Assembly (NCBI GenBank): GCA_963701295.1
Contig: OY969585.1
Coordinates: forward strand, 3,296,001 to 3,360,000
Reading direction: 5' to 3'
DNA: 64,000 bases
Source of the DNA: Ignavibacteriota bacterium
GTDB lineage: Bacteria; Bacteroidota; Ignavibacteria; UBA10030
Part shown: positions 1,417 to 20,636 of the stretch, piece by piece
How the letters are laid out: each line of letters opens with the position of its first letter
Position numbering within the stretch: the first letter of the stretch is position 1
The notes under the pieces: generated by a model
Seen by the model: only the letters and a program-made list of their open reading frames with translations
Database searches by the model: none
What the model was told of the DNA's origin: nothing
Translations under genes and position numbers: made by a program

Positions 1417-1422
1417 ATCATG

Positions 1423-1508
1423 TGCCGAAGGGGGGACTCGAACCCCCACTCGGTTTGAGCCAAACTGGATTTTGAGTCCAGCGCGTCTACCAATTCCGCC
1501 ACTTCGGC
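1423..1508 (-). tRNA. tRNA-Leu (anticodon CAA), long variable arm, CCA not encoded
   Basis: Acceptor stem GCCGAAG/CTTCGGC plus A73; D arm TGGCGGAATTGGTAGACGC; anticodon arm CTGGA-CTCAAAA-TCCAG; T arm GGGGG-TTCGAGT-CCCCC. Confidence 0.97.
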
Positions 1509-1510
1509 AT

Positions 1511-1753
1511 TTATATATTAAGAATATCTTTTAAAAGTTCTCTTCCTTGTCCTGATTTAAGAAACTTCTCACGTTCCGCTGCCTGCTTCCTATCTAAATA
1601 ATTCTCTATGTGTACAAATACCAGTGGTCGTCTTCCTTTTGTCGCTGATACTCTTCCTGAATTATGTTCCTCAATCCTCCGAGAGATGTTGTTAGTCAAT
1701 CCTATATACAACTTCCCATCTTTTTTTGAATACAATACGTAAACGAATTCCAC
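1511..1753 (-). CDS. Small stand-alone GIY-YIG nuclease (UPF0213/YhbQ-like)
   Basis: VYVLYS...LYIGLTNNISRRIEEHNSG...TKGRRP...AAEREKFLK, with the Y, Y, G, R, H and E core residues present. Likely GTG start at 1753; the ORF track extends the frame to 1822. Confidence 0.9.
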   Translation of the reverse strand: MEFVYVLYSKKDGKLYIGLTNNISRRIEEHNSGRVSATKGRRPLVFVHIENYLDRKQAAEREKFLKSGQGRELLKDILNI

Positions 1754-1828
1754 TTGAGTCCAACGCGGTCGCCTTCGGCGACCAAGTCTACCTTTGCCCG
1801 CCGAAGGCGGGAATTCCGCCACTTCGGC
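1754..1828 (-). pseudogene. Duplicated 5' half of tRNA-Leu (nt 1 to anticodon) with two 19-nt hairpin insertions
   Basis: GCCGAAGTGGCGGAATT[CCCGCCTTCGGCGGGCAAA]GGTAGAC[TTGGTCGCCGAAGGCGACC]GCGTTGGACTCAA versus the tRNA GCCGAAGTGGCGGAATTGGTAGACGCGCTGGACTCAA: 36/37 identical once the inserts are removed. Confidence 0.92.
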
Positions 1829-19807: not shown

Positions 19808-20636
19808 GGTAATTAGGTAAGAATGTAACCATAGAATAATTGTAAGTATATTATTTTATGGCAAGTTCCAGTAAAATCAGTTACCATGACAACTTTTTGA
19901 GTGGAAAGAAGTGTGTGTATTGTGGATCGTTCAACGTCTGTCGAACGAAACGCGGCTACGTAAAATGCAACAAGTGTCAAAGACAAAAAGGAAGTCATCT
20001 TCTTCGGCGAGAGTTGAAAATCATTCTTGGTTTTTATCAACAGCAACCGGCGTATCGATTGGCAAATGATCTTGGAATAAATTATAAAACTGTTACCAGA
20101 GTCTATCAGCGCATTCGAGAAGCGATTTATCATGTGAGCGAACTTGAAGCTGGCAAGCTCAAAGGAGAAATAGAATTGGACGAAGCGTATTTTGGTGGTC
20201 GTCGCAAAGGCAAACGAGGACGCGGTGCAGGCGGAAAAAGTATCGTTTTTGGGCTTCTGGAGCGCAATGGACGGGTCTATACTAAGGTTGTTGATTCTGT
20301 CTCGGCCAATGAATTGATGGATCATATTCGACAACATACCAAGAAAGGATCGGTCTACTTCACGGACACCTTTCGTAGTTATCGCTCCTTGAAACGCTTT
20401 GGAAAACATCATACCATTAGTCATGGAAAGAAATTTCCGAAAACAAAGAATCATATTAATGGTATTGAAGGATTTTGGTCTTTTGCTAAACATGTCTTAT
20501 ATAATTATCGCGGTGTTTCAAAATATCATTTTCCTATGTATCTTAAAGAAGTTGAATATCGTTTTAACCATCGCGATGACAATTTGTTGAAACTCTTTAC
20601 TCTAATCTATTTCGGTTACGTTTCTACCTAATTACC
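19808..20636 (+). mobile_element. IS1595-family insertion sequence, copy 1 (829 bp)
   Basis: 23-bp imperfect TIRs GGTAATTAGGTAAGAATGTAACC / GGTAATTAGGTAGAAACGTAACC; 8-bp flanks TTCTTTTA / TTGTTTTA (one mismatch). Confidence 0.93.
19858..20631 (+). CDS. IS1595-family (ISXO2-like DDE) transposase
   Basis: N-terminal CxxC...CxxC zinc ribbon, EIELDEAYFGG, KRGRGA, YFTD, HINGIEGFWS, YLKEVEYRFN. Confidence 0.95.
   Translation: MASSSKISYHDNFLSGKKCVYCGSFNVCRTKRGYVKCNKCQRQKGSHLLRRELKIILGFYQQQPAYRLANDLGINYKTVTRVYQRIREAIYHVSELEAGKLKGEIELDEAYFGGRRKGKRGRGAGGKSIVFGLLERNGRVYTKVVDSVSANELMDHIRQHTKKGSVYFTDTFRSYRSLKRFGKHHTISHGKKFPKTKNHINGIEGFWSFAKHVLYNYRGVSKYHFPMYLKEVEYRFNHRDDNLLKLFTLIYFGYVST

Follow-up and report, generated by a model that had tools for sequence, protein, structure and literature searches.

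Paired 19-nucleotide hairpin inserts in a dead tRNA-Leu copy beside a small GIY-YIG nuclease gene: a candidate ultra-short mobile element

A tRNA-Leu cassette with two hairpin inserts

The window (the whole 64,000-nucleotide stretch analysed here) carries a cassette of about 320 bp at positions 1509-1828. Reading along the minus strand, a fragment of tRNA-Leu(CAA) is followed by a GIY-YIG gene and then by an intact tRNA-Leu(CAA). The cassette is missing at the orthologous locus of the congener G009 and of others, and its ends can be slid within the duplicated tRNA segment. The fragment, a dead 5' part comprising tRNA nucleotides 1-37 (1754-1828, minus strand), occupies the native tRNA position behind an upstream flank common to cassette-free relatives, and it holds both inserts. 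Directly after its anticodon lies the open reading frame of an 80-aa single-domain GIY-YIG nuclease (1511-1753, minus strand). The intact tRNA (1422-1508, minus strand) begins 2 nt past the stop codon. We take the GTG at 1753 as the likely start, because a related metagenome contig, L261, has ATG at the same place. Another GTG, upstream within the dead tRNA, is in frame with the nuclease owing to the two inserts and opens a 103-aa reading frame (1511-1822, minus strand), which is likely incidental since L261 has its ATG at the downstream start. The window also holds an ORF for an IS1595-family (ISXO2-like) transposase (19858-20631, plus strand).

A MAFFT alignment of the two tRNA copies opened no gaps and was uninformative; a gap-tolerant alignment of the dead copy against the intact tRNA was used instead, and it revealed two clean 19-nt insertions and one substitution. 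Insert 1 (1793-1811, minus strand) sits in the D-loop just 5' of the conserved GG and has a stem of 6 bp, a triloop that reads TTC on the tRNA-sense strand and, on its 3' side, a YAAR tail of 4 nt. Its register is unambiguous. Insert 2 (1768-1786, plus strand), a variant of the same unit in the opposite orientation, lies at the 3' edge of the D-loop and D-stem and can be slid by 1 nt. In L133 and L138 the insert-1 sequence occurs at insert 2's tRNA-Leu site, in the orientation of insert 2 and free of ambiguity, which favors 1768-1786 with a 6-nt spacer over 1767-1785 with one of 7 nt. The initial annotation, which had reported two clean 19-nt inserts, was thus right about their presence and length, but had placed the second at 1767-1785 and the two 7 nt apart.

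In the register 1768-1786 each insert comprises a GC stem of 6 bp, a triloop (GAA/TTC) and a YAAR tail of 4 nt. Of their 19 positions 14 agree, and compensatory changes distinguish the two outer stem pairs. The gap-tolerant alignment bears out the original description of them as mutually inverted, with no target duplication at either. The 6 nt that separate them (1787-1792, minus strand) are a remnant of the tRNA D-loop, and the inverted pair can also form one longer hairpin. Folded as DNA, each insert forms a hairpin (z = -4.9 and -3.2). In the whole 3.64-Mb genome there are only four instances of a perfect, GC-rich stem of 6 bp with a triloop and YAAR tail, two of them at this locus (control tails, 0-4; shuffles, 1, 0 and 3), so the two inserts are not a product of chance.

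The exact 11-nt core is likewise found only four times in the 3.64 Mb and is therefore no abundant repeat in this genome; the proposed genome-wide count gave no REP-like abundance, although the unit recurs, with filled and empty sites, elsewhere. The core had also been said to contain the tRNA acceptor strand. The 7-nt match is real, but words of at least 7 nt shared with the 19-mers are present in 12 of the 46 tRNA genes of the genome. The match is at chance level, and an acceptor-stem origin of the inserts was rejected.

The nuclease and its relatives

A profile search assigned the 80-aa ORF to PF01541 (E = 1.3e-15), and the conserved residues Y, Y-x-G, R, H-N and E are all in place; an NCBIfam search gave no match over the cut-off. 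The closest solved sequences are 1ywl and 1zg2 (UPF0213), and the closest folds to its predicted model (pLDDT 96.6) are 1zg2, Slx1 entries and HIGLE, with TM scores of 0.59-0.74. By sequence and model the protein is UPF0213/Slx1-like, a predicted nuclease. Slx1 is a multi-domain, structure-specific repair enzyme, whereas the window protein has a single domain.

Thirty genomes of the genus and family contain 126 distinct short GIY-YIG proteins, 90 of them encoded within 450 nt of a tRNA and some in tandem arrays. One such array (G002:C2:365021-369130; L041, L044) has 14 cassette copies at about 299 bp by tRNA-Pro fragments in which a hairpin stands for the anticodon arm; another (G019:C9:1492196-1494253; L311) has seven copies at 305 bp. 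GIY-YIG proteins that are flanked by repeats and free of tRNA form a separate long branch, which we take to be Ssn-like in a tree built without a reference SsnA, and the window protein falls outside it. The genome under study has one gene of this kind (L033, G000:C1:2938956-2939174), a short GIY-YIG gene amid hairpin repeats of CGTC-like type. Its protein sits on a long branch, separate from the tRNA-linked ones, and appears Ssn-like; the published SRM pattern was not matched there. L040, L068, L096, L097 and their kin make up a well-supported nine-member nuclease clade with no tRNA nearby and with a short direct/inverted repeat in the flanks.

History of the locus

This tRNA gene was matched in 14 of 15 congeners. 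In nine of these no nuclease gene could be detected at the locus; the other five have a different cassette downstream. The window exceeds G009 here by about 320 bases, with the dead part placed behind the native upstream flank. Neither the upstream double-insert form nor a single-insert form was found in any of the 14 congeners with a match. The same double-insert fragment does occur behind the same flank in four metagenome contigs (L261, L256, L282 and L268), in which insert 2 is identical by construction of the search and insert 1 varies. The nuclease of L261 is 75% identical to that of the window. L256 keeps the double-insert fragment with the nuclease gene deleted, and in L268 the locus is cut by the contig end. 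In L282 an integrase-like ORF, recognized by eye, directly follows the anticodon loop of the fragment, as might result from an island's use of the dead copy for attachment. The sequencing runs listed included no RNA run and showed only small shares.

Because four metagenome contigs carry the pair at the orthologous locus, it was probably inherited rather than freshly made by this copy of the enzyme. The two inserts were likely acquired once in this cassette lineage and passed on since.

Insert families in dead tRNA copies

We found 69 clean inserts in dead tRNA copies. Their lengths are discrete: 19, 21 and 25 nt (hairpin plus tail), 20 nt, 22 nt (11+11), 30 nt (15+15), 34 nt and above, and 58-61 nt. 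The 19-mer is thus one of several fixed-length families in such cassettes. Several inserts are nested or occur in both orientations, and several families stack within one fragment. Register ambiguity is absent from 61 of the 69 inserts and amounts to 1 nt in the other 8; therefore there is no target duplication, in contrast to a MITE.

After three alignment-artefact rows were dropped, 26 of 39 distinct insert sites lay inside tRNA loops, against 36.5% expected, and 15 of these 26 were a single T-loop position. Triloop hairpins occur at 2.25 per kb within 200 nt of tRNA-linked GIY-YIG genes and at 0.22 per kb further off, where the sequence is largely coding DNA. Loops of the form C-NNA-G, the pattern of stable DNA mini-hairpins according to PMC13037366, account for 55 of 69 triloop hairpins near tRNA-linked GIY-YIG genes versus 5 of 32 further off. 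These loops, like the use of both orientations, speak for DNA and not for RNA.

Inserts are most frequent in the T-loop, and it is the tRNA T stem-loop that is recognized by SegB of phage T4, a free-standing GIY-YIG homing endonuclease whose gene lies amid tRNA genes and which spreads by cutting a tRNA motif (PMC2330249). The inserts might accordingly protect the cassette as in homing-type immunity, by destroying the nuclease cut site; the initial annotation had proposed as much for the element's own copy. That proposal finds no support at this locus, where the same tRNA segment is present again, uninterrupted, from 2 nt past the stop codon. In every cassette counted, the gene likewise has an intact tRNA with these sites as its immediate neighbor, so that the putative target would not be lost. 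SegB, moreover, recognizes 27 bp of double-stranded DNA in phage, and its abstract names no tRNA duplication or hairpin inserts (PMC2330249); the UPF0213/Slx1-like window protein, a single 80-aa domain, leaves no room for a separate DNA-binding domain for a long double-stranded site. We regard self-protection as very unlikely.

Recurrence of the 19-nt unit

The exact insert-1 pattern was found at 121 loci or more in species-representative genomes (about 140 estimated), where roughly 9 are expected under even base composition. The matches listed include records from Bacteroidota, Planctomycetota, Anaerolineales, cyanobacteria and Margulisiibacteriota; a class-wide search found the unit in 4 of 401 genomes, and viral contigs yielded one locus. 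Flanking the listed copies are fragments of tRNA-Leu, Ser, Cys, Gln and Asp, interrupted at different positions, and many copies lie within other hairpin or heptamer repeats. In L244 a tandem pair of the 19-mer adjoins a GIY-YIG gene.

An empty allele within the same locus was present for 14 of the 121 sites among the matches listed. Clean filled/empty pairs differing by exactly 19 nt were obtained in tRNA-Leu, tRNA-Ser and non-tRNA contexts (L127, L138, L151 and L209), while the tRNA-Cys and tRNA-Gln pairs differ by 20 nt. For several non-tRNA pairs the fit is to a shifted register in which the target resembles the tail. At 13 of the 121 sites among the matches listed the "tail" pairs with the left flank, and these are therefore merely longer palindromes. 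In G326 a 24-nt non-tRNA hairpin repeat is empty in 7 of 18 matches and present in 2 of 18 as a 43-nt form containing the 19-nt unit, and it is also found with different inserts; no nuclease gene lies near the filled repeat.

The unit accordingly has a definite length and anatomy, inserts cleanly and in both orientations, and recurs at several tRNA positions and in a non-tRNA repeat. The initial annotation had called the hairpins ultra-short mobile palindromes and suggested a search for filled and empty sites. Such pairs exist, at 19 nt, for tRNA and non-tRNA targets alike, and together with the several targets, both orientations and the tandem pair they support the description.

These data also bear on whether the hairpins could have arisen on the spot, as scars of fold-back repair built each time from flanking tRNA sequence. 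The core does share 7 nt with the acceptor strand, at the chance level noted above, but the same 19-mer, letter for letter, has unrelated flanks in several phyla, and the inserts come in discrete lengths. The recurrence of one unit in unrelated surroundings largely refutes such an origin, which we consider extremely improbable.

The insert-2 scan returned 49 loci, of which 48 were analysed, one labelled human-gut being left out. Four represent the orthologous locus, a few are repeat contexts, and most, from metagenomes, look like chance occurrences in GC-rich coding DNA. The insert-2 hairpin is also found within CGTC/SRM-like repeats (L295, L443). L428 and L250 have the same hairpin in contexts that resemble, by eye, what are presumably a cobalamin riboswitch and RNase P RNA.

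The tail was tested separately because the insert-1 scans already contained it. The hairpin pattern gave 98 matches in 86 family genomes, at most 5 per genome, versus 21 for a reversed control. At 56 distinct sites of its commonest form, a YAAR tail is present in 11 (about 1 expected; four from one genome). The other 45 carry other tails, so several repeat families share the hairpin core as a module. Twenty-three of the 56 sites are within 600 nt of a tRNA (background 1.2%) and eight, this locus included, within 600 nt of a GIY-YIG gene (background 0.23%). For 12 fetched sites of other hairpin variants, neither a tRNA nor a GIY-YIG gene was found within 600 nt.

Association of hairpins with the nuclease

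Hairpins are nearly universal in the dead tRNA copies of these cassettes and absent from the other tRNA fragments of this genome. Three cassette loci in the genome hold four dead fragments, all four with hairpins; the distant tRNA fragments have them in 0 of 13 cases, even though several span the same tRNA loops. Across cassettes, 71 of 85 dead copies have a hairpin by rule, against 20% of random 160-nt windows and 15 of 40 tRNA upstream flanks. By eye, the remaining 14 comprise 11 long-loop or short-stem inserts and three mis-assigned intact tRNAs.

A second cassette in the genome (L032, G000:C1:3414880-3415490) consists of dead 5' parts of tRNA-Gly and tRNA-Cys, each with a hairpin, followed by a GIY-YIG gene and an intact tRNA-Cys. 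The insert in its tRNA-Cys part differs from the insert-1 hairpin by one mismatch and is shared by related tRNA-Cys cassettes of the family. Gene-less relics occur at tRNA-Gln, Leu(TAG), Thr(CGT) and Met (G000:C1 near 2549780, 857650, 2036520 and 1811580), as partial tRNA copies that contain a 30-nt double hairpin or end at an apparent hairpin start; HMM searches found no GIY-YIG trace at any of the four.

Insert type and nuclease type go together, with the limits that insert type is confounded with tRNA type and shared descent and that the nuclease trees are short, quickly made and poorly resolved. Similarity to the window enzyme is greater for nucleases with the 19-mer in their flanks than for the others (mean 77 versus 59 bits; 13 versus 122 proteins, which are not independent), and a single 47-row clade takes in 11 of 14, two being in other tRNA-linked clades. 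The 19-mer adjoins nucleases of at least three clades.

The tracking of nuclease clade by insert family, the hairpin in nearly every dead copy by a nuclease gene (71 by rule and 11 more by eye) and the conservation of the pair at the orthologous locus would all fit hairpins that are structural ends or recognition marks of the cassette, moving only with it by recombination in conserved tRNA motifs. Such marks would not readily account for a 19-mer cleanly inserted in a non-tRNA repeat away from any nuclease gene, nor for the many positions, both orientations and several families stacked in one fragment. We judge this explanation unlikely; it and a mobile unit are not mutually exclusive.

The initial annotation had suggested that the hairpins were possibly deposited at cuts made by the adjacent GIY-YIG enzyme. 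A statistical link to tRNA-linked GIY-YIG genes holds. Deposition of these two by the adjacent enzyme does not follow from it: the pair is shared by four orthologous contigs, one of them without the gene, and only 7 of 129 exact insert-1 loci among the matches listed (one being this locus, and 41 having short flanks) have a GIY-YIG gene within 600 nt. An enzyme acting in trans, such as a RAYT-type HUH transposase, an Ssn nuclease or a host repair path, could move the units, with the dead tRNA copy as a neutral, hairpin-rich landing place. The location of most copies within other hairpin repeats away from GIY-YIG genes and the insert-2 hairpin in CGTC/SRM-like repeats would agree with another mobilizer. 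Its difficulties are the 13 insert-free tRNA fragments of this genome, the covariation of unit and nuclease clade, and the result of a domain search: among 150 scanned of 187 flanking ORFs no Y1/HUH domain was found, while GIY-YIG appeared four times and Uma2 twice. This makes a separate mobilizer quite improbable in our estimate.

Discussion

With little better than even confidence, we favor the interpretation that the 19-nt hairpin plus tail is a mobile element of the non-autonomous kind. It would enter folded single-stranded DNA either way round, where small tRNA-linked GIY-YIG nucleases would likely make nicks, and be joined by host repair. The substrate may be a tRNA cloverleaf or repeat hairpin exposed during replication or transcription. 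The Slx1-like enzyme would nick the folded strand at its loops, often in trans, and might bind the hairpin and tail as an oriented site, by analogy with the binding of NTS by SsnA. A host ligase or polymerase would then seal the hairpin-plus-tail oligomer into the gap without duplication, a step we assign to the host because GIY-YIG enzymes are hydrolytic. We infer the enzyme's involvement in insertion.

We found no description of the cassette or unit in the open-access literature, supplements of the Ssn paper aside; the closest systems are Ssn/SRM, REP/RAYT and the cyanobacterial SDRs. The last are very small mobile repeats of 21-27 nt, reportedly described by Elhai et al. in 2008 as nested in other short repeats, with the enzyme said to be unknown; we know of no link between them and a nuclease. 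On that description they resemble the present unit in being about 20-30 nt long and inserted in other repeats. They differ in range, as SDRs are restricted to Nostocaceae according to a second-hand statement in PMC5861425, whereas the 19-nt unit is present in many phyla.

For the Ssn nucleases (cd10448) with their NTS/SRM hairpin repeats, a REP/RAYT-like mobile origin has been raised as a hypothesis (Chenal et al. 2025, PMC11893778). That system, like ours, ties a small single-domain GIY-YIG gene (<150 aa; here 80 aa, PF01541) to oriented hairpin repeats. The units described here differ: they measure 19 nt, are few in any one genome and interrupt tRNA fragments as well as other repeats. The SRM pattern gave 0 matches within 500 nt of the window gene, although that pattern is insensitive and also missed 15 of 16 repeat-flanked genes. 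The word "tRNA" is absent from the main text of the Ssn paper (PMC11893778).

REP and REPIN elements share with the 19-mer a short, non-autonomous palindrome with an unpaired tail and inverted doublets, and some REPs sit in other palindromes (PMC3116915, PMC3733652, bioRxiv 2021.07.10.451892). The initial annotation had drawn an analogy to REP/RAYT without an HUH transposase. The lack of an HUH transposase among the 150 flanking ORFs and the GIY-YIG identity of the adjacent gene agree with the second half of it; REP-like abundance is not seen, with only two or three copies in this genome, and the inserted unit is a single 19-nt hairpin rather than a doublet. In joining a small nuclease to oriented hairpins the present case works as Ssn/SRM and REP/RAYT do. 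We file the unit under none of the known systems, because the SRM, HUH, copy-number and target-duplication tests all came out negative.

What this locus provides is a tailed 19-nt family, an empty/filled pair outside tRNA, a catalogue of families and a within-genome control. Outside REP/RAYT, to our knowledge, the spread of 20-30-nt palindromes through bacterial genomes awaits an explanation. The unit is exactly delimited at 19 nt, its targets are known in the empty state, and it co-varies with a very small candidate enzyme, so the question lends itself to direct testing with oligonucleotides and a single protein of 80 aa.

More tentatively, as a conjecture whose chances we put well short of even, a 19-nt hairpin including a 4-nt tail may be a self-standing mobile element among the smallest known. 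It would belong to a set of families, each with its own partner clade among the 80-aa Slx1-like nucleases that colonize tRNA genes, and would enter folded single-stranded DNA by blunt, duplication-free insertion through a hydrolytic nuclease and host repair, without transposase, integrase or reverse transcriptase. If our interpretation holds, GIY-YIG nucleases beyond Ssn would drive a transposase-free route of mobility, and this group could supply small structure- or sequence-specific single-stranded DNA nickases. A type of pseudo-tRNA that is common next to small GIY-YIG genes would then also be accounted for.
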